From Podarcis pityusensis (Eukaryota), in the NCBI GenBank assembly GCA_964106645.2, contig OZ067041.1: a stretch of 64,000 nucleotides of DNA; one strand, 5' to 3'. This document shows, piece by piece, positions 28,411 to 45,100 of this stretch. The notes below the pieces were generated by a model, which was not told the DNA's origin, did not search any database, and saw only the letters and a program-made list of their open reading frames with translations. The translations under genes and the position numbers were made by a program. How positions within the stretch are numbered: the first letter of the stretch is position 1; each line of letters opens with the position of its first letter.

Positions 28411-31102
28411 AGGGGAACACTGTGGTTTATTTGCGCATACTGCATATACAATCTGAGTCTACGATGGAGAGGTTTCCAAGAGGGTCTCTTGCTTTCCCGT
28501 AGGCACAACAGCCTTGGATTAAAATCAGAAATCAGACATGTGTTCTGTCTCCTTCTTACAGCCTGTCCCAGTTTTTGCCAGCGCATCACTGCCAACTTTC
28601 ATCCTAAAAATTCTGTCCTTTTGTCTCCTACTTACTACCTCTCTAGAGGAAGGAGGGGCTCACACCCCCACTGCTGTCCAGCACAAAGTAACTGCTTTGT
28701 TAATCACCCACCTCCCTTCCCCCCTTGTTTCCATAATGACTCGGTTATTAACAAGCTTTGCTCCCCTAATAACCCATAACAAACTGATGAGCGATCACCA
28801 GGTTGGCCTGCCTTGTATTTTTAACTTAAGAGATTTGTAATGGTTTAACTTCCCAAATCTTGATTAAGTCTACTTTTTATTGGACCCAGGAATTTAGGGT
28901 GTCACACACCCCATAAACTGTTAACAGTATCATGGGTTGGTTTGCAGTGTTGCCACAATGCATTGGAAAATCTGGTAAGTGCCTTCTGGACAACATTTCC
29001 TGACTGCATTTCCTAAACATGCAAAACCAAACCAAAATACACTTGCATAAAACCTTTGCCTCTAATATAATCAAAAAGAAATCCATACAGTTTTTCTTAT
29101 AAGGAGCTAATGCCTACTATGGGCTGTTTAGTTTTCAAAAGCATCCATGCTACAGTAACATTCAACAGACTTCCAATCTTTAATGGCAAATATATAAACT
29201 ATTACTTACTTAAAATCAAAGAGCTTGAAGGAATGTCAGGTATTGTCTAGGTACATACAAATGCAGAGACAGGATTCCCTGTAATTAAGCCTTCTCTGAA
29301 AGAACACTCCTTGGCATGTCTTTAAAAATATTTCTTATAGGAGATTATCTGTGGGCCACTATGTTATATGTTACTCTTGGATTCAGAGTAAATGTGCAAG
29401 ATTGTATATGGAACAAGTACTTAGGGTACCAACATTGGAAGGGAGGAGGATGGAACTTCTAGTTGACTTGAATATGCACCTCAGAGTGCTTTGTGTAGCA
29501 TATCGTGCACTACAGCATCTTATATTTTTTGAGTTATAAGCTTCAATAAAAAAAATTCAAAAAAGAACCAATTCTAAAAACAAAAATGAGGTGAGCAGCA
29601 TAATTTATAAATACTATGCTTATAGAGGCACCATTTGGGTATGTGTATTTTGCCTCCAGCCAAACAGACACATAGGCTGTACATGTACACATCGTTCATA
29701 ATATTTTGGAAATGCTTTCTTTGTGCAAAAAACAAGAGAGTGGAAAATAAAAAGTAGCAGAAAAACTCTGGCTTCATTAACTTATTCTTCAACAGTATTC
29801 ATCAGTTCTTACTTGTATTGAGAAACATTTGCTAATTGCCACCTTACCATTCCTATAGGTCAGATCCACTGCCTGCTGCTTCTCTCTGTGGCAAAGACTA
29901 AAAACAGTGAATTCCATTATCTTTAGTGCAGTTCTTTAAATATTTGAAAGTAGATCTATCCTCATTTCTCATATTTAATGTAGTATTAACATATTTTAAA
30001 AACTTCTCTTTCATTTCTTCATGGATGTGTTTGCACACATAGTCAGTGAATCCCAAGTCATGGACCCGACTGTACATTTGTGGTCAATAATGGCTATAAA
30101 TGGTGAGTTTGGGTCTAACCAGGCATTCTGAAGGCATTCAATATTTGTCTTAAATTGAATTATCCATTGTTTCCAATTCCAAGTAATCATAGATGAAGCC
30201 AAACTTTGGTTCTTTATGCATGTCCAAATTTGTTCTTTTTGGATTTAGTGAGACTAAATCCCTGCCACCTCCCTTCCAAACATTATTCTTTAGAGAATTA
30301 TGTTTGCATTTCAAATAAAAAATGTATTCAGTATGTTCGACTAACTTAGCACATGCTTTTATAGTATCTTTCTGCCTTCTCAGCTTTCTGACAGATAATA
30401 AGAGATTGTGGGTTATATATTTGTTTATTAACATTGCTATTCAAGTTGTACCACTAGAAAAAAAATGATATTATGTCTGCTTCTGTTGTACATTTATAAG
30501 GGTGAAATGCTCCTCTTGTGAAATTTTGTCATCTGTAAAAGCTGCTACTGTAGAACAATGAGAAATTGACATACTTTATATTGAGGTCTGTTCTGACTTT
30601 AAACAGACACGTGCATAGTATTGGAACACAGTTATTGTTTTTGTAAACCAAATAATGTATTTTGGAGCTTGCTTACATGTGTATTTTAAATAGGCAACAC
30701 TAATTAGACAAGTTACAGAATCTAATTTAAGTTTTGGGAAATAGGAAGTATGCTGCAAACATTGTGCGCAAGAACTATGAATAAATAGCTGCACTTGTAA
30801 TTCCTACTAGCAGGGCACATTTGGAGGACATGAACATACAAAATAAAGAAATTCTAATTTGAGTATGTTGGAAAGGCAGAGCTGTGTGAAATCTATATAC
30901 TTATAGATATTTTTAAAACTTTATTTTGATGTCTCTAGGGCTGCCTTTTTCAACCTTCGGTCCACAGATGTTGTTGTAGTTCATCAGGGGACCCAATATT
31001 GAGAAAGGTTGTTATAGTGTATGTAGATATGCATGCAAACAACTTTTATTCCATTTTCCTCAGAACAATTGCACAGCAAATATGAAAAGCTGTAAAAGTT
31101 AG

Positions 31103-31864
31103 TGTCAGAGCTGCTTCCAGATCCTAGCTCACAGAGGATCACGCTAGCCAGCGATCATTAAATAAAAGTCTTTATTGAGTTACAGTTTCCATTCTCAAGC
31201 TGCTGCGTGCAACTCTACGTCTCATGGTTAGATCGGCGAAACTCCATCTGAGTCTCCGCCCCTTGTACACCAACTTAATATCCTAGCCTTGCTCCACCTT
31301 TTCCGCCTGACTGTTCTTCTCTGGGTCCCTCTGCCCCCCGGGGTCTCTTCCTTCCGGGATTCCTCTGACGCTGACGCTGACCCCCCTGACTCTTCTCCCT
31401 CCTTTCGGCGGGCTTTAGGACCTGGCTCCCTTTCCGGGCTGCCTACTGCGCCACCTTCCTGTGCATTTGAACTTGGCACGCGCGCCCAACCTTCCACCTT
31501 CCGTCTGACCGTTTCTTCGCTCCCCGATGGAGGTGTGGCCACTCCTGACTCGTGCCCTCCCCCCTGTTGTGAGCTGCCAGCGCTTGATCCCTGGCGCCCT
31601 TCCTCTTCCCTGCTCTCTGGCGGTGACGCTGGTCCTGATTTCCAACTGCTCCCCTCTGAGTCCCCTCTGGCTCTATCTTCCTGGGGTGTCCCCCTAGGCT
31701 CCCCCCTTGCCCTGGCCACTGGTGCTCCTTTCTGTGAATCTTCTGATTCACTGGAAAGACTCGGAGATCTCGGGTCGTCGTCATCACTCATCTTTTCTTC
31801 TGCCTCCTCTCCCTCGCTCTCTGTTTCCTCCCTTGCCCTTGCCTCTGCTCCTGAACCCCTGACA
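31103..31864 (-). repeat. 3' LTR (762 bp)
   Basis: Identical to the 5' LTR by visual comparison except A31241 vs G37052; preceded on the minus strand by the polypurine tract. Confidence 0.97.
31171..31176 (-). terminator. Polyadenylation signal of the retrotransposon (3' LTR)
   Basis: AATAAA on the minus strand about 50 nt after the pol stop and about 70 nt before the LTR end; copy at 36982-36987. Confidence 0.75.
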
Positions 31865-34800
31865 TCCATCCCCCCCTCGAAGCCCCCTCTTCCCCCCTCC
31901 CCTCCTTCCGGTGCGGGATCTGGGTGCTGCCGTGTCAGGGGGACGAATGTCGGATACAGTTCGCTTCCCGTGGCGGGCCGCCATCCGAAGTCTTCCGGTT
32001 CTTCCTCCCTGCTCTCGTTGACGACGGTCACCTCCGCTTCCATCTCTGTGCCGCCGTGCTCGAAACCCGGGTCGTCCCCGAAAACGTCCATGTCCGTCTC
32101 TCCCTCGTTGCCTTCTGGAGACGTTGCTCGTCCTGGACCCTCCAGCCACCTTCTGCGGAACTGCTCCTCTGGTCGATCATCCCACCAATACGAGGGTTCT
32201 GAAGCAGATCCCGAGGGTGACCCCTCTGGGGAACGGGCGTCTCGTGTTGGTTCCTCGTCCGAGTCGAACCCCCGGAACGTGCTGGCTGAAAGCGTGGGCG
32301 TGAAAAGCCAGTCGTCGAAAAAGTCTGCTGGCATTGGCCTATGTGGGAAGAGGGCATGAAACTCTTCTTTGAGCAGAGGTTCGTCTAAAGCGTAGCCCGG
32401 CACCCAGCTGTTGGCACTGGCCGGGGTGCCCTCCTTGGCGAGAAGGTATTCTACCCCCTCTTCCCCCCATCTGGAGTCCAAAATCTCCGTGACTTCGTTG
32501 ATGCGCTCCTCCTGTGCCACTCCCCCTTGCCCGGTTCTCTCTCGGAGTGGACCCGGTGCCGTTCCTGGTTCCTGAAACCTGTGAGGTGCCTTGTAGGGAG
32601 TGAGCACCGATCTGTGGAACACCGGATGCATTCTGGAACCCTCCGGAAGAGCCAGCCTGAAAGCCACCGGGTTGACCTGTTCGTCGACTTGGTAGGGCCC
32701 CAGTTGTTTATGCCCTAGTTTCTTCTTCGCCAACGACCTGGCCGGCACTGCGTGGGCTGCTAACCAGACCCAGTCTCCCACATGGATCTCTTCGCCAACC
32801 CTTCTGTGTTTGTCCGCTTGTACCTTGTATGCGTGTTTAGCCAGCTCCAGGTGCCGCCGCAGCTGATCGTGGACCTCCTGCAACTCCGACGCGAACGCAT
32901 CTGCTGTCTGCGGCTCCCCCTCCCCCATTCTTTCCAGTCCCGGGAAGGTTCTAGGGTGCCTCCCGTTGTTGGCGAAGAACGGCGTGACCCCCGTGGACAC
33001 GTGCTTCGTGTTGTTGTAGGCGAACTCGGCGAGAGGCAGGTAATCCACCCACGTCGCAGGCTGTTGATTCGCATAACATCTCAGGTACTGCTGCATGATG
33101 GCATTGACCCGCTCCGCTTGCCCGTTGGTCTGCGGGTGTCTAGCCGACGCCAGGTTGATCTTGACGTTCAGGAAGCCCATCAGCCTCTGCCAGAAGTTTG
33201 AGATGAACTGTCGCCCTCGGTCGGACAGAATAGACCGCGGCAGACCGTGAACCTTGAACACGTGGTCTATGAACAGTTTGGCGGTTTGTTCCGCCGTGGC
33301 CACCTTTGCACACGGAATGAAATGTGCCATCTTGGAGAACAAATCCACCACCACCAGCACAGCCGTCTTGCCCCTCGAGCTGGGCAGATCCGTGACAAAG
33401 TCCAGGGCCACTCTCTCCCATGGCTCGAACGGAGTTTGCAGCGGTTCCAGCAGTCCGGCCGGCGGTCTGTGCACTGGTTTGGCCCTCTGGCAGGTGTCAC
33501 ACCTCGCCACGTAGTCCGCGACTTCCCCTCTCATTCCGGGCCACCAGAAGTCTCTGGCTACTAATTCCACCGTCTTCTCCTTGCCAAAGTGCCCGGCAGT
33601 GGGCGCGTCGTGCAGCTGCTGCAGTACCTTGGCGCGAAGTTCGTCTCCCGGCACGTAGATGGCCCCTTTACGGATGAGCAAACCATCTCGCAGCTGGAAC
33701 TCGTCGGTCGCTGCCGTGCCCCTGTGCACCTCTGCCATCTTTGCTTGCGCGAAGGAGTCATCCTGCAACGCTCGTCGCACCGCATCCAGGTCAACTGTTG
33801 CCGCCGCGCACGCCCACACTGTCGGTGCGAAGATGTGCATGGCGGCCGCTGGCGTTGCCTCCTCCAGATACTGTGGCTTACGGGAGAGAGCATCCGCCAT
33901 GATGTTGGTGTCCCCCGGGACATACGCTATTCGGAAGTCGAAATTCGCAAAGAACTCAGCCCAACGTATCTGCCTCTGGTTCAGGAACTGTGCCGTGCGC
34001 CAGTGCTCTAGATTCTTGTGGTCCGTGCAGACCTGCACCGTGTGCTTGGCGCCGATCAGGAAGTGCCTCCACGCTTTGAACGCTGCATGAATGGCCAGCA
34101 ACTCCCTGTCCCAGATGGTGTAGTTCTGTTCGGACTTGCTGAGCTTCCTTGAGTAAAACGCTCCCGGCCTCCAAACCCCCTGCGGGTCTTTCTGCAGCAG
34201 GACTGCTCCCACGGCTCTGTCCGAAGCGTCTGTCTCCACCCTCATCGGCCTGCTGGGGTTGACATGAAGCAGCTGCTCTTCCGACGCGAAGAGACGCTTG
34301 AGTGCCTGAAAGGACTGCTCCGCCTGCTCTGTCCAGATGAACTTCTTTTTCTTGGAGCTGAGCGTGTCCGTGATGGCCGCTGTCTGCATGGCAAAGCCTT
34401 TGATAAACTTGCGATAGAAGTTCGCGAAGCCGACAAACCGTTGGACCTCCTTCCGGTTGCGTGGGCTTTTCCAATCCAACACTGCTCGGACCTTGGCGCT
34501 GTCCATGGCGAGCCCTTTATCAGACAACTTGTAGCCCAGGAAATCCACCTCCGTCACGTCGAATTGGCACTTCTCCAGCTTGGCGTAAAGCCTATGTTGC
34601 TGTAGCCTGCTCAGCACTTCCTTGACGTGTCTGTCATGCTCCTGCTGCGATTCCGAAAAGATCAGGATGTCATCCAAGAAACAGACGCACGTCTTGTAGA
34701 GGAGCCCCGCCAACACGTGATGCATGAAAGCTTGAAAAACGTGGGAGCCATTTTGCAATCCAAAAGGCATAACTCTATATTCGTAGGTGCCCAGGGGCGT

Positions 34801-35799
34801 GAACATGGCTGTCTTCCACTCATCTCCCTCCCGCATGCGAATGAGGTTGTATGCCCCTCGCAGGTCCAACTTGGTGAACACTCTGCCCTTCCGTACCTTT
34901 GCGAGGAGGTCGTCGATTCGGGGCATGGGGAAGTCCGATGGCTTGGTCACACTGTTCAAGATGCGAAAGTCCACTACAAGTCTTTTTTGGGGCGTGTCCC
35001 GCTTCTTAACAAAGAATACCGGACTGCCCCCCGCTGCCTTGGACTCTCGGATGAAACCGCGCTCCAAATTATGATCTATGAACTCTTTGAGTTCCTGCAG
35101 TTCGTCCTCAGACATGGAATACAGCTTCCCTTTGGGCAGCGCCGCCCCCGGCAGCAGGTCAATTTTGCAGTCATATGGTCTGTGGGGGGGTAGCCTGTCT
35201 GCCTCTTTCTCGCAGAAAACCTCCAAAAATTCTGCGTACTTGTGGGGAACCGCTTGCAGCGTGCCTAGCTGCAGCTGTGACTCCTCTTCCCCTCCTTCCT
35301 GCCTGGGCACGATGCAGTGTTCAGCGCAAAAGGAAGAGCCGAAGGTCAGCTGCCTCTGGTACCAAGCCAGCGTCGGGCTGTGCTTGTCCAGCCAACTCAT
35401 GCCCAATACAATGGGCGTGTCCGATAGTTGAGTGACATTGAAGCTGATGATTTCCCTGTGATTCCCAAGTCGCATCACCATTGGTGGCGTCTGCTTCACC
35501 ACTTGCCCCCCTAGCAGCTCCCTGCCATCCACCGTGACAACCTGCAGGGGCAGCGTGGCAGGCAGCAACTGTATAGCGTGCCGGTCGACAAAGTCCTGCC
35601 CTATAAAGTCCGCATTGCTTCCGGAGTCAATGGTGATTGGCACATCCATGGTGATTCCATTGGGCAGCTGGAGCGACGCGGTGAGCCTCACTACCGGTTT
35701 GGGCGGGAGGGGGTCCATGGGCTGTAAAATCTCTGGGGACTGCTTCACTGACACGTCTGGCTGGGCCCCAGTGCCTCTTCCTCCAACCAGACTCCTTCG
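31228..35799 (-). CDS. pol: Pol (expressed as ~1860-aa Gag-Pol via -1 frameshift): protease, RT, RNase H, integrase, degenerate chromodomain, 370-aa C-terminal extension
   Basis: Uninterrupted frame. PR ITIDSGS; RT KLDLRGAY, MPFGL, FLDDILI; RNase H ETDASD, DHKNL, ADALSR; IN LHDAPTAGH...CDTC and LDFV...SDRG...QAERVN; GPY motif; chromo-like EVTEILDSR...EYLL...SWVP...EFH. Confidence 0.95.
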   Translation of the reverse strand, partial: RRSLVGGRGTGAQPDVSVKQSPEILQPMDPLPPKPVVRLTASLQLPNGITMDVPITIDSGSNADFIGQDFVDRHAIQLLPATLPLQVVTVDGRELLGGQVVKQTPPMVMRLGNHREIISFNVTQLSDTPIVLGMSWLDKHSPTLAWYQRQLTFGSSFCAEHCIVPRQEGGEEESQLQLGTLQAVPHKYAEFLEVFCEKEADRLPPHRPYDCKIDLLPGAALPKGKLYSMSEDELQELKEFIDHNLERGFIRESKAAGGSPVFFVKKRDTPQKRLVVDFRILNSVTKPSDFPMPRIDDLLAKVRKGRVFTKLDLRGAYNLIRMREGDEWKTAMFTPLGTYEYRVMPFGLQNGSHVFQAFMHHVLAGLLYKTCVCFLDDILIFSESQQEHDRHVKEVLSRLQQHRLYAKLEKCQFDVTEVDFLGYKLSDKGLAMDSAKVRAVLDWKSPRNRKEVQRFVGFANFYRKFIKGFAMQTAAITDTLSSKKKKFIWTEQAEQSFQALKRLFASEEQLLHVNPSRPMRVETDASDRAVGAVLLQKDPQGVWRPGAFYSRKLSKSEQNYTIWDRELLAIHAAFKAWRHFLIGAKHTVQVCTDHKNLEHWRTAQFLNQRQIRWAEFFANFDFRIAYVPGDTNIMADALSRKPQYLEEATPAAAMHIFAPTVWACAAATVDLDAVRRALQDDSFAQAKMAEVHRGTAATDEFQLRDGLLIRKGAIYVPGDELRAKVLQQLHDAPTAGHFGKEKTVELVARDFWWPGMRGEVADYVARCDTCQRAKPVHRPPAGLLEPLQTPFEPWERVALDFVTDLPSSRGKTAVLVVVDLFSKMAHFIPCAKVATAEQTAKLFIDHVFKVHGLPRSILSDRGRQFISNFWQRLMGFLNVKINLASARHPQTNGQAERVNAIMQQYLRCYANQQPATWVDYLPLAEFAYNNTKHVSTGVTPFFANNGRHPRTFPGLERMGEGEPQTADAFASELQEVHDQLRRHLELAKHAYKVQADKHRRVGEEIHVGDWVWLAAHAVPARSLAKKKLGHKQLGPYQVDEQVNPVAFRLALPEGSRMHPVFHRSVLTPYKAPHRFQEPGTAPGPLRERTGQGGVAQEERINEVTEILDSRWGEEGVEYLLAKEGTPASANSWVPGYALDEPLLKEEFHALFPHRPMPADFFDDWLFTPTLSASTFRGFDSDEEPTRDARSPEGSPSGSASEPSYWWDDRPEEQFRRRWLEGPGRATSPEGNEGETDMDVFGDDPGFEHGGTEMEAEVTVVNESREEEPEDFGWRPATGSELYPTFVPLTRQHPDPAPEGGEGGRGGFEGGMDVRGSGAEARAREETESEGEEAEEKMSDDDDPRSPSLSSESEDSQKGAPVARARGEPRGTPQEDRARGDSEGSSWKSGPASPPESREEEGRQGSSAGSSQQGGGHESGVATPPSGSEETVRRKVEGWARVPSSNAQEGGAVGSPEREPGPKARRKEGEESGGSASASEESRKEETPGGRGTQRRTVRRKRWSKARILSWCTRGGDSDGVSPI
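31865..31878 (-). promoter_or_regulatory. Polypurine tract (plus-strand primer)
   Basis: Minus-strand GAGGGGGGGATGGA directly abuts the TG of the 3' LTR; further G/A runs extend to about 31909. Confidence 0.9.
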
Positions 35800-35805
35800 T
35801 TTCCC
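35733..35805 (-). promoter_or_regulatory. Programmed -1 ribosomal frameshift signal (G GGA AAC plus predicted H-type pseudoknot)
   Basis: Heptamer at 35805-35799 in the gag frame (CAG GGA AAC); the -1 frame is pol (GKRRSLV). A 6-nt spacer precedes the 10-bp stem GTCTGGTTGG/CCAGCCAGAC; loop CTGGGG can pair with CCCCAG at 35738-35733. Confidence 0.88.
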
Positions 35806-36821
35806 TGCTGTGGTTGTCCTTGCTGCGTTGCTGCAGTTACCATTGCTGAGGCTGCAGTGTGCTTGTGGAGCCTCTGGGGACACTCTTTCGCCATATGCTG
35901 TGGATCATCGCAGATGTAACACTTCCTGTTCCCTCTAGGAGGCTTCGCTTTCACTGCTGCCGGTGCTAGGGCTCTGGCTGCTGACTGAGCCCTTGCACCT
36001 CCAACCTCCATAGGTTCCGCTCCTCCTCCTGGCGGAGGCGTGGATTGCGCACGCGCTGCTTCTCTGGGAAGGAAGGAGGAGCCCCTGGCTGGTTCGCGCC
36101 CTCCACGCCCTTCGTCCCTGCTCCACGGACGTCCTTCCAGCCGCACCCCCACCGCCAGCGCCCTCTGAACGATCTCCTGCGTGGTCCGGGGTTTCTCCCC
36201 CCTCGCAATTTCATCTTTAACCGAGCCGTGCAATCCCTCCCAAAACAGGTCTCTTACAGGAGCCGAATCTCTGTCCCATTCCAGGGCACTGACCAAAGCG
36301 AAAAAGCGGGCATGGTACTGCCTTACGCTGGCCCTCCCTTGCTTCAGTCCATGTATCTCCTGCCGAGCAAGATCCACGTCAATGCTTGATAAAAAGCACC
36401 CATCCATCGCTTTAATAAAGGCATCCGCATTTTGGAGCGCCGGATCCTTATCTCTCCACAAATTGCGCAGCCATGCTTTAGCATCTCCATGCAAATGGGA
36501 CATGATGAATCCCACCTTCTCTTGCTCATCTCTAAAGTCTTTGTTCAGCAGTTGCAGTGCACACATTACATCTGCTCTAAAGTTGGGGTACTGTTGCAAA
36601 TTCCCATCGAAGTGAGAGACCAGACCGCCTGTTCGTCTCCCCAACCCAATCCCCTCCGGTTTGGGTGTCAGTTGCCCTTGCTTCGTAAGCACTTCCAACC
36701 TGACCTGGAGATCCCTGTAGGCGGCAGCTGCGTCCTCCTCTCTCTTCCTGGATGCAAGAGCCTCGGCATTCAGTCGTGTCACTGCTTCTCTGAGTTCCAC
36801 TATCTGCTGTTCGGCCGTCAT
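35745..36821 (-). CDS. gag: Gag (358 aa from first ATG): coiled-coil N-terminus, retrotransposon capsid domain, CCHC zinc knuckle
   Basis: ATG at 36821 (GACAACATGA, A at -3). Capsid-like FDGN...KVGFIMSHLHGDAKAW...LKQGRASVRQYHARF...FWEGLHGSVKDE; EPMEVG motif; knuckle CYICDDPQHMAKEC (CX2CX4HX4C). Confidence 0.93.
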   Translation of the reverse strand: MTAEQQIVELREAVTRLNAEALASRKREEDAAAAYRDLQVRLEVLTKQGQLTPKPEGIGLGRRTGGLVSHFDGNLQQYPNFRADVMCALQLLNKDFRDEQEKVGFIMSHLHGDAKAWLRNLWRDKDPALQNADAFIKAMDGCFLSSIDVDLARQEIHGLKQGRASVRQYHARFFALVSALEWDRDSAPVRDLFWEGLHGSVKDEIARGEKPRTTQEIVQRALAVGVRLEGRPWSRDEGRGGREPARGSSFLPREAARAQSTPPPGGGAEPMEVGGARAQSAARALAPAAVKAKPPRGNRKCYICDDPQHMAKECPQRLHKHTAASAMVTAATQQGQPQQGNEGVWLEEEALGPSQTCQ

Positions 36822-36901
36822 GTTGTCTGCCGTTCGTGAGCTCGCTAGTAGGCACCCGCTTTCTCTCCTCTCCGCGAGGACGTAGATGCCCACAATCTAG
36901 G

Positions 36902-36913
36902 GATGGAGCTTAC
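36902..36913 (-). promoter_or_regulatory. Primer-binding site, non-tRNA (self-priming type)
   Basis: Sequence after the 5' LTR reads GTAAGCTCCATC with no TGG; AAGCTCCATC is the exact complement of LTR sequence GATGGAGCTT at 37059-37050. Confidence 0.75.
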
Positions 36914-37675
36914 TGTCAGAGCTGCTTCCAGATCCTAGCTCACAGAGGATCACGCTAGCCAGCGATCATTAAATAAAAGTCTTTATTGAGTTACAGTTTC
37001 CATTCTCAAGCTGCTGCGTGCAACTCTACGTCTCATGGTTAGATCGGCGAAGCTCCATCTGAGTCTCCGCCCCTTGTACACCAACTTAATATCCTAGCCT
37101 TGCTCCACCTTTTCCGCCTGACTGTTCTTCTCTGGGTCCCTCTGCCCCCCGGGGTCTCTTCCTTCCGGGATTCCTCTGACGCTGACGCTGACCCCCCTGA
37201 CTCTTCTCCCTCCTTTCGGCGGGCTTTAGGACCTGGCTCCCTTTCCGGGCTGCCTACTGCGCCACCTTCCTGTGCATTTGAACTTGGCACGCGCGCCCAA
37301 CCTTCCACCTTCCGTCTGACCGTTTCTTCGCTCCCCGATGGAGGTGTGGCCACTCCTGACTCGTGCCCTCCCCCCTGTTGTGAGCTGCCAGCGCTTGATC
37401 CCTGGCGCCCTTCCTCTTCCCTGCTCTCTGGCGGTGACGCTGGTCCTGATTTCCAACTGCTCCCCTCTGAGTCCCCTCTGGCTCTATCTTCCTGGGGTGT
37501 CCCCCTAGGCTCCCCCCTTGCCCTGGCCACTGGTGCTCCTTTCTGTGAATCTTCTGATTCACTGGAAAGACTCGGAGATCTCGGGTCGTCGTCATCACTC
37601 ATCTTTTCTTCTGCCTCCTCTCCCTCGCTCTCTGTTTCCTCCCTTGCCCTTGCCTCTGCTCCTGAACCCCTGACA
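36914..37675 (-). repeat. 5' LTR (762 bp)
   Basis: Direct repeat of 31103-31864 (offset 5811); TG...CA ends; lies upstream of gag on the minus strand. Confidence 0.97.
37086..37091 (-). promoter_or_regulatory. Candidate TATA-like box of the LTR promoter
   Basis: TATTAA on the minus strand, an isolated AT-rich spot in a GC-rich U3, starting 32 nt upstream of the predicted self-primer/TSS (~37059). Confidence 0.55.
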
Positions 37676-37975
37676 GTTAGTAATAGACGTTATGGAATTT
37701 TGTAACAGTAAGGGGAAGAACTCTGGTAGTTGAAGTGGTATTTATGAACAAATGCTCATCTTTGTGGTATATCAATCAATATACAGACAGAATGCTACTC
37801 ATCTATTGCCTGTCTCAAAGGCCTTTGTAGCTCACATGCTTAGTATTAGTGATTTTCTTCCTCAGGTGCAACGGTGCACACATTTGGAGGCTTTGTTTCT
37901 ATAGGAGTGGTTAGAGCAAACATAATACGTTCTGTTGTACTGCATCTGTTGTCACCTTCAATGGCTATAAACGTA

Positions 37976-41051: not shown

Positions 41052-41478
41052 TATGTCATAGGGCAATCCAAACCCAGGATCAAACCCCAATTGTAATCAG
41101 CTAGCAGACTGACTGGATGGTTCAGGATACCCCTAAGCCTACTTACATCTGTAATCAATAAACGTTGTGGCCTGTTTTGATCCCAGATCATCCACTTAGG
41201 TAATTTTTTGCTTCTCACTCCCCAGCTTCAGGGGTGGTGGGCTCACTGCACCTGGGCACGCAACTGAATATTAATACAAATTATCGTGTGGTTCAAAGTC
41301 ATCTAGAGGAAAATAAAATAAGAATCATTAGAATGATAATAGCCTGATCCTTAATATGCATCTGATTTCTATATTTGTGTTGGTTTCCTTGCAATTTTAA
41401 GGTCAGTCTTCTATACTGGCAACAATTGAAAGTGTGGATAAGGATTATTATTTTTCATGAATTGTATTTTCTTTTCAG

Positions 41479-42142
41479 TGGGATGCTATAACAGAAATGG
41501 ATGAATATAATCGCCCCATCCACACTTACCAGGTATGTAATGTTATGGAACCCAACCAGAACAACTGGCTTCGTACAAACTGGATTTCCCGTGATGCAGC
41601 TCAGAAAATTTATGTGGAAATGAAGTTTACACTGAGGGACTGCAACAGCATTCCATGGGTACTGGGAACATGCAAGGAAACATTTAACCTCTACTACCTG
41701 GAATCAGATGAATCCCATGGAATTAAATTCAAGCCAAACCAGTACAGTAAAATTGATACTATTGCAGCTGATGAGAGTTTTACTCAGATGGATTTGGGTG
41801 ATCGCATCCTTAAACTGAACACAGAAGTTCGTGAGGTGGGACCAATAAACAGGAAAGGATTTTTTCTTGCTTTTCAAGACATTGGTGCGTGCATTGCTTT
41901 GGTCTCTGTCCGTGTTTACTACAAAAAGTGTCCTTTCACTGTTCGGAATTTGGCTATGTTTCCTGACACTATTCCAAGGGTTGATTCTTCATCTTTAGTG
42001 GAAGTACGAGGTTCCTGTGTGAAGAGTGCTGAGGAGCGGGACACTCCAAAATTATATTGTGGAGCAGACGGGGATTGGCTTGTGCCTCTAGGACGATGCA
42101 TCTGCAGTGTTGGGTATGAAGAAGTGGATGGTTCCTGCCACG
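41479..42142 (+). CDS. EPHA6: Ephrin type-A receptor 6, internal coding exon (exon 3: ligand-binding domain and start of Cys-rich region)
   Basis: Acceptor ttttcttttcag at 41478|41479 and donor CACG|gtaag at 42142|42143; 664 bp, phase 0 to phase 1. Translation [73 protein letters not shown]...[36 protein letters not shown]. As recalled, [17 protein letters not shown] and TIPRVDSSS mark the EphA6 paralogue. Confidence 0.93.
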
Positions 42143-45100
42143 GTAAGATAATTGTTCTTAATTAATTCCAGGATACTTTTTGTTTTTTGTTTTACCACTT
42201 GGCCTGTTGTCCAGGTTTCACTGAACTTAATGGCGAAATCAGTTTTAATAGGAGATGGATTGAGCTCATGATCTATTTTACTGTTGTATGTTGCTCAGGA
42301 TATGTTCAGATCAGAACTGTTTTCAACAAAGAATACAGAATGTGCATGTTCAGGGAAAACAAAGTTGCTTACTTGTAATAAATTAATGGGTAAAGCACAA
42401 TAGTTTTTCGTTTGTTATGAAGAATACAAAATTTAAGTTGCTGCATGAATACCAAATATGATTAATTCAATAGAAGATTAAAGTTTTACTGCTATGTACC
42501 TAAGGATCAGAGTATCATAGAATTGCAGAGTTGGAGGGGATCCTGAGGGTAATAAATAAATTCATAAGTGTGAAACAATACAATATATAAAGGCAATATT
42601 TGTCTTTAAAGCACTACATATTGTATAAGATAAAATAAGCAGTTACTTCTGAGAAAAGAAACAGCAGATACTTTGCATGAATACTAAAGAGCAGGTAGAC
42701 GGTACATCCCAAGTATTGTATGGGAGGTCACTGCAATAAGTTTTTCTGCTGCACAGTTACTTTGGTACTAGTTATTGCTGTGTTCTTTCTCACAGAAACA
42801 AATGCTCAGTGTAAAACATTAGTGTGATCACTATATTTTCAAGTGTATGTAGAAAAGATTGAAATGGTAGTAAGTTGAGGCTATAAATGAAGGCTTTTGA
42901 CAATGGAGTATGAGGGAATTTATTTGCGTCTCAATATAGTACCTCCCCATTTCAGGTTAAGCAGTGGACTAAGGGAAAAAATAGCATCCTGATATTTGGG
43001 CATGTGAATAAATATTAATATATTTTAAATATATATAAATAGAAATATATATATTAAGTATTTTATTTTATTTCTATTTGATTGTTTGTATAAATTTGTG
43101 AACCACTTTTTAATACCAATACTCTTGGGCAGCTTACATCCATGAAAGAAAATAATAAAAACATGCAAACAGATAATGCTTCTGTGATGGGTATCTACCT
43201 AGATAACCTGTTTAATATGACTAATAATTACAAATAATAAATATATGTGTAGCCTTATTTGAGTTCACCGATTCATATGTTCCATTAAACTTGGGCTTAA
43301 ATAGAAACAAGATAAAAGAAGCACATGGCTTATGGAATGTCCATCTTTTTGGCCCAACCAGCCACTATAGCTTGACCTAGCATTCAAAATAAACAGATTT
43401 GATAGCTCTGAGCTTAATGTTCTTGAAAAACTCTTTGATTAAAGTTCTCAGAAGAGCAAATTAAAGTTGTGTACTAATGCTAGTACATTAATCTGGAAGT
43501 GCAAAATGTAACCACATTATTATTTGGGTTTGGGTAAGGGTGGTAGGACAGTTAGAACATCAGTTAGCCCATGAATTGTGTCCAAAATATATTAATAATT
43601 TCTCATATAAAGAGTAGAACTATCATCTAAATGCTCTGTGGCCAATTATAAATCTATATATTAGTCCCCACCCCACCTCTCCTGTACTTTTTGACTGTGT
43701 ATATTCAATAAGAGGATAACGTCTGTAACAGAACCAAGAATGCCTAGGCAGAAGCATAATAAGAGTACCTAAAAGCATGCTTATTCAAATATTTCTATTT
43801 AATTGCTTAGAGGGTGGGAAATTAGTGTTTAAACAGATCATGTTGTAAGATGACTATTTTAGTAGTTCCTCAGTTTGGCTTCCTATAGAGACAAGTGGTT
43901 TTATGAATTATTCTCAGGGGTGAATTGCATTTTCATACGTCTGTACATCTTTGAATGGCTGTTCTAGGTTGATGCTATATTTGATGTGTTTTTAAATTCT
44001 ACACAACACATTTGTGTCCATGCATGTGTAAATGAGTTCTAAAGTAAGCTGCAAGATTAAGAGCACTAAAAATCCTCTCCTGTCTGCCAAATGTTTTTTT
44101 AAAAATGAACGGTAACAAAGAACTGCTCAAATCTTCTGGTTCAGTTGTCAGTCTCTGTATAAGCAATCAATTGCCTTGCTCTACACTGACTGGAAACGTG
44201 GTCTGGAAATGTCTGGAAAATATGCACAGCAGCAGCAGACCATACAATCAAGACCTGTGTGACCAGTGTAGTTCAAGAAAATGGCTTGTCACCTAGGACA
44301 GGTACGGGAAACCAGCTCTTATCCTCTGAGCCAGTGCAGCTGCAGGCCAACAGAACTGCTGTGTCAGTCCTTGGAGCAGCCCCTTCTTAATGCAAGTTTG
44401 AAAAATCCTCTGTATGACCTTGTATTCTGACATTGTCAAGAGTGTCTCAGCATTAAATGCCCTAGCTTGGAAGACCTAGATAGAGGATAACAAGTATGTG
44501 TAAAACTAGCCTGTTGCAGAAAAATAAAATGTACATTCATTGCTTTTGCTTCTGGATCCATGTGTCATGTGGCCCCCAAAAGGTTTCCCAAAGGGAATGT
44601 GGCCCTTGGTCTGAAAAAAAATTATCTATCCCTGGTATAAACAATTAGAGGCTTTTAGAGATGATTATTACCGGCCATTGAGCATCTTAATCCCTCTTTT
44701 GGAAAGTAAGTGTTTTCCAGAGATAAACCTTTCATCAGGAACACCTGCTTGTATGGAGATATATACTGTTGCTTAGGACAGTGCATTTTAATCACTAGGT
44801 TAAAGCTTTAGGGAGGAAAGCTTTGGAGATACAAACTTTGGGAGAGCGTGTTCTCCTACATAGAGAGCATGGGTTGCGGTGGGGTTAACAAGACACCTCA
44901 CTGTTGCCGGGCGGGTTAGTTTGGATGTCCACCGTTGTGATTGGGCTCCTCTTGTTGTTGGTGAGAGTTTGATGTTGCCAATTATGGATTGACAGCCTTA
45001 GGTGATATATTCTCTGTGCGCAGCATGGAGCTTCCTCTTTTCACTGCGCGCATCTGATTAAGCAGTGGAGAGAAGCATTTCTTTCAAAAAAACAGTTGTG

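Follow-up and report, generated by a model that had tools for sequence, protein, structure and literature searches.

Why does the pol frame of a lizard retrotransposon run on for 370 amino acids (aa) beyond its chromodomain, through the polypurine tract (PPT) and deep into the element's 3′ long terminal repeat (LTR)? The element that raises this question is a complete Ty3/gypsy chromovirus located on the minus strand, at positions 31103–37675, of a 64-kb stretch of Podarcis pityusensis DNA (GCA_964106645.2, contig OZ067041.1), referred to here as the window. An earlier reading of the letters, the original prediction, had noted that no stop follows the chromodomain and that the frame crosses both the PPT and the LTR boundary to take in 211 LTR codons; we verified this as a single frame of 1558 aa running from 35904 to 31228. 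The extension consists of 159 codons ahead of the LTR and 211 codons in the 3′ LTR, which is entered at 31864. As measured, 84% of the LTR is coding and the stop (31228–31230) lies 52 nt ahead of AATAAA, close to the ∼83% and ∼50 nt first proposed.

T accounts for 10% of the sense strand of the unique 3′ region (U3) of the LTR, and the original prediction had cautioned that, with such a T-poor composition, openness alone is no proof of function. Dinucleotide shuffles (n = 5000) bear this out: 1.5% were stop-free over the U3 part and 0.06% over the whole tail, so that T-poverty alone leaves openness unlikely, yet possible. In subfamily A, to which the window copy belongs, the frame is open in 30/30 fetched copies, but since these are 99.8% identical their openness is uninformative on selection, and diverged subfamilies were compared instead.

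Selection on the U3 reading frame

Segments of Podarcis homologues, used as queries against the genome, revealed subfamilies B, C, D, E and F, and the copies of each set were picked by protein similarity, a procedure that favours intact copies. Tail DNA of B, C and D is 68–82% identical to that of A. Intact copies of each subfamily stop at the same place, past the same basic/L-x-W motif, and the full tail is present in 30/30 A, 29/30 B, 18/28 C/D (two C loci lacked the anchor) and 14/30 E copies. The U3-coding lengths across subfamilies (633, 651, 654, 672 and 693 nt) differ by multiples of three; between close pairs, gaps in U3 are exclusively in frame or compensated, whereas the repeat (R) and unique 5′ (U5) regions carry 1-nt indels.

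A codon model was fitted to seven real copies from six subfamilies, with U3 represented by 186 ungapped codons. The ratio of nonsynonymous to synonymous rates (dN/dS, ω) was 0.07 for the integrase core, 0.08 for the chromodomain, 0.39 for the pre-LTR tail and 0.28 for the LTR part, and fixing ω at 1 in U3 cost 54 log-likelihood units (2ΔlnL ∼108). Pairwise counts on four copies gave ω values of 0.18–0.32 with bootstrap intervals below 0.5; the four other U3 frames gave 1.5, 1.8, 2.1 and 2.8. Variable U3 columns were distributed over the three codon positions as 64/68/131. With CpG-free U3 codons ω was 0.35 (2ΔlnL 36), and CpG-free columns kept the three-base periodicity (43/59/90, p = 2e-9). 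The original prediction had named dN/dS and indels across subfamilies as the check on a coding U3: ω is well below 1, indels preserve the frame, and intact subfamilies keep it open. We conclude from these substitution patterns that U3 is almost certainly under constraint at the amino-acid level.

Some results tell against a selected tail. Frameshifts in G runs affect many of the older copies, as reflected in the low counts of full tails in E and C/D. Judged by fourfold sites, a strand test favoured sense in the core and the pre-LTR part and did not reach significance in U3 (p = 0.19). As a neutral control, 5′–3′ LTR differences pooled from 19 elements comprised 31 synonymous and 30 nonsynonymous changes, corresponding to an ω of 0.35 and not 1, where 64–74% nonsynonymous changes would be expected under neutrality. 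When 59 changes from 17 of these elements were split, those private to one element were 29 nonsynonymous and 17 synonymous, and those shared with other copies were 1 and 12, respectively (Fisher p = 0.0004); this split follows an ad hoc rule, and neutrality appeared only after it had been made.

The 5′ and 3′ LTRs of single elements (L126, L130 and L156–L161) differ by variants present in other copies. This sharing suggests recombination or template switching between copies, which would bias LTR-based ages.

A replicating lineage that lacks the tail was also considered and rejected. E copies with one common truncated ending have each lost a G from differing runs and do not cluster in the tree; the same holds for most broken copies in general, with single-G losses in varied homopolymer runs, and the breaks in C differ in position. 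The differing break sites in E and C point to independent slips or sequencing errors and not to a tail-less lineage. As a separate observation, a G run at ∼32525–32540 between the SH3-like domain and the chromodomain (same place in L091–L130) is long in B, E and F and often changes length, so that many copies have the chromodomain and the tail shifted out of frame; candidate explanations are a hotspot of slippage, a central purine tract and an error in the assembly.

More distant relatives were examined in the same way. Family G, whose integrase is 57% identical, crosses the PPT in the same phase and codes through a shorter U3. Its frame stops 7 codons past the self-primer site, and its L-L-C-W precedes that site by 11 codons, the distance also seen for I-L-S-W in A (read by eye). 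The frame extends to the end in 16 of the top 20 G loci, while two stop early, one lacks the anchor and one was set aside; over six copies, ω was 0.33. In family H 117 LTR codons are coding, and Anolis proteins, known from the proteins alone, have 115-aa tails. A 45-row integrase tree places A–F, G and P0014 in one clade (100/99) within a squamate group (93/97). Taken together, the subfamilies, G, H and the tree indicate, at the level of sequence, that the long tail is a clade trait and not a one-copy accident. In 105 chromovirus Pol hits whose alignment reaches the end of the chromodomain, tails have a median of 6 aa and are longer than 100 aa in 7, in keeping with the earlier premise that chromovirus Pol usually ends shortly after the chromodomain. 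Family H (L185–L196, L204, L205) is very young and dispersed and has an intact aromatic cage; its U3 tail ends in RRSARL, a motif reminiscent of the HMGN nucleosome-binding core, and the Anolis proteins end in RRSARI.

Could the frame be open as a by-product of the T-poor U3, or to shorten the 3′ untranslated region, with the constraint arising from promoter DNA or CpG mutation? Besides the base composition, this explanation can draw on the L-x-W motif, which in two families coincides with the TATA-like box and keeps a constant spacing to the inferred start, and on the pooled 5′–3′ LTR ω. However, selection for openness alone would give ω ∼1, the three-base periodicity persists in CpG-free columns, and in subfamily C a change from TTA to TTG keeps Leu although the AT-rich box is lost. 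A by-product therefore appears very improbable, being already largely refuted by the codon-model and CpG-free tests. That the selected product is instead the antisense mirror frame seems scarcely credible. Antisense genes have precedents in HTLV HBZ and HIV ASP, and the lizard frame is stop-free in ungapped U3 columns of 7/7 copies, with an ω of 0.38; yet it has third positions in common with the sense frame, so that a low ω is expected (0.14 for the integrase core in that frame). Moreover, it contains stops in the full U3 of 3/6 subfamilies, 6/6 G copies and 2/2 H copies, is broken before the LTR in 6/7 copies, and has no AUG in subfamily A.

A degenerate chromodomain and an FxGF motif

The window chromodomain scores 19.4 bits in Pfam, below the cut-off of 25.1, compared with 43 and 55 for G- and H-type proteins. 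AlphaFold models it with a pLDDT of ∼90, and the predicted domain matches HP1/CBX structures (rmsd 1.0–1.6 Å, Foldseek E ∼5e-3, probability 1.0). It falls outside the type I chromodomains: N, K and T (aligned by eye) stand where Y, W and Y occur in family H. The tail that follows is predicted to be disordered, its pLDDT being below 50 almost throughout.

The best-conserved part of the tail is an F-x8-FxGF stretch in which 15/20 positions are invariant; F, F, G and F are invariant in 17/17 aligned peptides. The motif was spotted after the fact, and its pattern occurs in 0.8% of shuffled tails. Family G has two motifs of this type with acidic linkers, and P0013, P0014 and the Anolis proteins P0118 and P0122 have one. 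A TND-interacting motif (TIM) comprises a hydrophobic helix, an acidic or phosphorylatable linker of 8–16 residues and FxGF, the latter being needed for LEDGF and HRP2 binding (PMC9987994), and its strict consensus is given as D/ExExFxGF (PMC8022399). The lizard motif matches in spacing and in FxGF; the linker is S/T-rich in the window family and acidic in G, and the model contains no confident helix. The strict D/E-x-E-x-F-x-G-F is absent from A–F (the window copy has S-A-S-T-F-R-G-F); P0013, Anolis P0118 and the first motif of L156, a family G copy, have it. Judged by its residues, then, F-x8-FxGF resembles host motifs that bind LEDGF-type domains. Anolis P0118 and P0122 are Pol proteins without a Pfam chromodomain, yet they carry the clearest helix–acidic–FxGF motif of the set.

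Database searches added little. No Pfam family was matched by the tail or the antisense frame, the ESM Atlas gave no usable match for the tail (score 0.76 for the family G-type tail P0012), and PDB sequence searches with the F-x8-FxGF motif returned chance matches only. A complex prediction for the motif peptide and the Podarcis PSIP1 IBD, made without alignments, scored 0.01, which counts neither for nor against binding. The original prediction did not include this motif, the degenerate chromodomain, the clade-wide spread or the skewed distribution described below.

Chromosomal distribution and possible role of the tail

Distances to contig ends were counted from match lists, which are top-scoring subsets; hits within 10 kb were merged, and C19 and unplaced contigs were set aside. 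For subfamily C, 81/152 matches were entered, B-family rows and most paired LTRs being omitted. Against an expectation of 3.9%, copies at ≤1.5 Mb from a contig end numbered 9/31 for A, 55/113 for B, 35/62 for C/D, 51/115 for E/F, 13/90 for G and 7/134 for H. Subfamilies A–F are ∼tenfold enriched at satellite-rich chromosome ends, whereas the control family H is not. One end usually dominates (C2 26:0, C5 0:13, C6 1:10). A ∼504-bp satellite, a candidate centromeric repeat, forms long arrays at the C2 and C5 ends, interleaved with element copies (G000:C5:100.32–100.80 Mb and C2:0.35–1.26 Mb; L206, L208). The enriched ends may be centromeric because Lacertini chromosomes are described as acrocentric (PMC10654178). 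The window copy itself lies mid-chromosome. G000:C19, possibly the W chromosome, carries 56/146 family G matches and many A–F matches.

How might the tail act? Its translation would occur solely as the terminal part of Gag-Pol, following a −1 frameshift, and would use the U3 of the 3′ LTR, since that of the 5′ LTR lies ahead of the inferred RNA start. Present at integrase stoichiometry and remaining on integrase, the predicted-disordered tail could offer a series of short motifs holding the integration complex to chromatin proteins of the host. FxGF would bind to a TND/LEDGF-type domain, and nuclear import or nucleosome binding could fall to the basic end. In this way the tail would take over from the lost methyl-lysine cage, much like the plant CR motif, and it may help to choose the landing sites of new copies. 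On balance we lean towards a selected, integrase-fused tail that extends through the whole of U3, would tether the complex to chromatin and might steer integration. The original prediction took U3 to be dual-function and to encode an accessory domain, possibly for nuclear import, condensate interaction or transactivation, either fused to integrase or released; a selected segment fused to integrase agrees with our data, and neither a conserved start nor a listed splice joint points to a separate product.

We regard as possible but doubtful a bolder proposal, in which the tail mimics TND-interacting motifs on the LEDGF/HRP2-type pocket used by HIV integrase and so replaces methyl-lysine reading. 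Its LTR-encoded end would then be an animal counterpart of CR, driving insertion into centromeric satellite, and the element an active vertebrate centromere-seeking retrotransposon.

A number of findings weigh against a tail that tethers and steers. LEDGF/HRP2 tethering predicts insertion in active gene bodies (PMC9987994), whereas the copies lie at satellite-rich ends, so that motif and distribution point to different targets. The window family has S-A-S-T replacing acidic residues, while family G, which fits D/ExExFxGF best, is yet weakly end-enriched. Family H has a U3-coded tail and is nevertheless dispersed; U3 coding alone thus gives no end enrichment. Just 11/112 A–E flanks abut satellite, one of them at the locus from which the satellite probe was taken, compared with 0/12 in the small H sample, and 8 groups of copies have common flanks, which may reflect segmental duplication. 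The centromeric nature of the enriched ends is itself putative, and their bias has other possible sources: the altered chromodomain, weak purging where recombination is low or, in part, such duplication.

Alternatively, the tail may be a real protein that serves nuclear import, solubility or particle assembly, with the end bias due to the chromodomain or to selection against insertion at other sites. Consistent with this, all families keep the basic C-terminal cluster (15 K/R among the final 60 aa), the tail of family H comes without end bias, and the chromodomain itself is strongly conserved (ω 0.08). An import signal, however, needs neither 370 aa nor an invariant F-x8-FxGF, and the finding that family H, equally young, is not piled at ends counts against purging alone; we consider this explanation unlikely. 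It is quite improbable that the tail is cut off by the element protease to become a separate accessory protein, for example one that recruits elongation factors to the LTR or counters silencing. TND-interacting motifs are typical of transcription regulators (PMC9987994) and an acidic, disordered composition suits an activator, but no AUG is conserved, the LTR Met of subfamily A not being kept elsewhere. Furthermore, a leader-to-tail splice joint was found in 0/4 listed joints at low read depth, and the frameshifted Gag-Pol product would presumably be scarce and particle-bound.

HIV nef and MMTV sag are U3-overlapping open reading frames (ORFs) that form separate genes with their own mRNAs. There as here U3 is both promoter and coding, but the lizard tail is an in-frame Pol extension without a conserved start. 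The original prediction regarded nef and sag as the best-known precedents; plant elements, namely CRM group A and Bingo1–4 and 7, are closer (PMC3059260, PMC3605345). Plant CRM group A elements are centromeric and encode the CR targeting motif inside the 3′ LTR (PMC3059260, PMC3605345, PMC6317226). The lizard element is alike in layout to these centromeric chromoviruses (CR motif/CHDCR, e.g. Beetle), by analogy and not as a member: it belongs to a different clade and host, keeps its chromodomain upstream of the PPT, and has a 370-aa extension over all of U3 with an FxGF motif. Furthermore, in CRM group A the CR motif replaces the chromodomain and the primer site is that of tRNA-Met, whereas the lizard primer site is self-complementary to the LTR. 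Bingo1–4 and Bingo7, beet Tekay elements, have the chromodomain upstream of the PPT and an ORF that enters the LTR, as in the lizard element (PMC3605345); they are plant elements, and the passages of that paper do not mention selection on the extension or a function for it. Thus, Pol reading into the 3′ LTR is already known in plant chromoviruses, and the lizard case is a vertebrate variant.

Closer at home, vertebrate sushi-type (Tf1/sushi) chromoviruses have the same PR-RT-RH-IN-chromodomain order, TGT…ACA ends (PMC3601003) and a self-priming layout, but one frog hit has an 18-aa tail, and long U3-coded tails occur mainly in the squamate group. The motifs of KMT2A, IWS1, JPO2 and JIL-1 that bind the LEDGF IBD combine a hydrophobic anchor, an S/T/D/E linker of 8–9 residues and FxGF within a disordered region, like the tail (PMC9987994, PMC8022399, 10.1101/624023). 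Those proteins are cellular, with lentiviral integrases binding the same domain, whereas the window family has no D/E-x-E before FxGF, and the likeness is one of residues. Among the listings and abstract openings returned by full-text literature searches, we found no report of a U3-coding layout in vertebrate chromoviruses or of FxGF in a retrotransposon; a brief earlier mention is possible.

On these data, protein-coding constraint can extend over the whole promoter region of a vertebrate LTR retrotransposon, and LTR annotation treating U3 as non-coding misses 211 selected codons. The FxGF motif and the basic L-x-W end are concrete candidates for integration-site choice by a non-retroviral element, and sister families in one genome that differ in chromodomain, tail motifs and distribution offer a natural comparison. 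If the ends are centromeres, the element would provide a convergent parallel to plant centromeric retrotransposons.

Organization of the element and its surroundings

The features of the element are collected in Table 1. Its assignment as a chromovirus follows from the TG…CA LTRs, the target-site duplication, the primer-binding site, the PPT, the Pfam order of protease (PR), reverse transcriptase (RT), RNase H (RH) and integrase (IN) with a Tf2-type SH3 in the window pol, and the chromodomain at the integrase C-terminus. The primer-binding site has the layout of the Tf1/sushi self-priming mechanism; the start of R was placed, provisionally, from the self-primer complement, and the TATA-like box and the U3/R border are likewise putative. 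Between gag and pol, a −1 frameshift probably occurs at G-GGA-AAC.

Table 1. Features of the chromovirus and its tail, in window coordinates
Feature	Position	Strand	Remarks
5′ LTR, 762 nt, TG...CA	36914..37675	-	
3′ LTR, 762 nt	31103..31864	-	lone mismatch vs 5′ LTR at 31241
Target-site duplication CTAAC, 5 bp	37676..37680	-	partner 31098-31102
Primer-binding site	36902..36911	-	complementary to 37050-37059 in 5′ LTR; self-priming layout
gag frame, stop to stop: capsid and zinc knuckle	35745..36896	-	
Slippery heptamer G-GGA-AAC, gag/pol overlap	35799..35805	-	pol in the -1 frame
pol frame, 1558 aa: protease, RT, RNase H, integrase, SH3-like, chromodomain, tail	31228..35904	-	
Chromodomain, HP1-like fold (predicted)	32344..32502	-	aromatic cage positions N, K, T
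F-x8-FxGF motif, FFDDWLF-TPTLSAST-FRGF	32266..32322	-	just behind chromodomain, upstream of PPT
Acidic pre-LTR tail part, 159 aa	31865..32340	-	ω ∼0.39
LTR-encoded tail part, 211 aa	31228..31864	-	all of U3 and 6 codons of inferred R; ω 0.28
Polypurine tract	31865..31878	-	translated in frame as G-G-M-D
Basic and L-x-W C-terminal motif RRKRWSKARILSWC	31267..31308	-	overlaps TATA-like TATTAAG at 31274-31280
AATAAA polyadenylation signal	31171..31176	-	
Antisense mirror frame, 375 aa	31232..32359	+	judged a by-product of the sense frame

The LTR pair differs by 1 mismatch in 762 nt, and the element is intact and very young. This sole mismatch falls in the self-primer sequence of the 3′ LTR and, among 30 copies, occurs in the window copy alone. 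A genome-wide DNA search yielded 1309 candidates; the 40 that were scored all proved ∼99.8–100% identical, so the window family is young and has been highly active. The nearest named proteins are those of Podarcis muralis and P. lilfordi. A search of sequencing runs listed no RNA dataset that contains the element. RNA reads from 4 runs (6–12% of each read, under a related-species label) covered 30/30 bins in both orientations, with the LTR ∼10-fold above the element interior, a pattern that fits read-through of solo LTRs and says nothing about translation.

Tandem elements with a common LTR, in which the 3′ LTR is followed directly by the primer site, were seen at L010, L015, L022 and L117. 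In the window, an exon for an Eph receptor ligand-binding domain lies on the plus strand at 41461–42165, ∼4 kb from the 5′ LTR.

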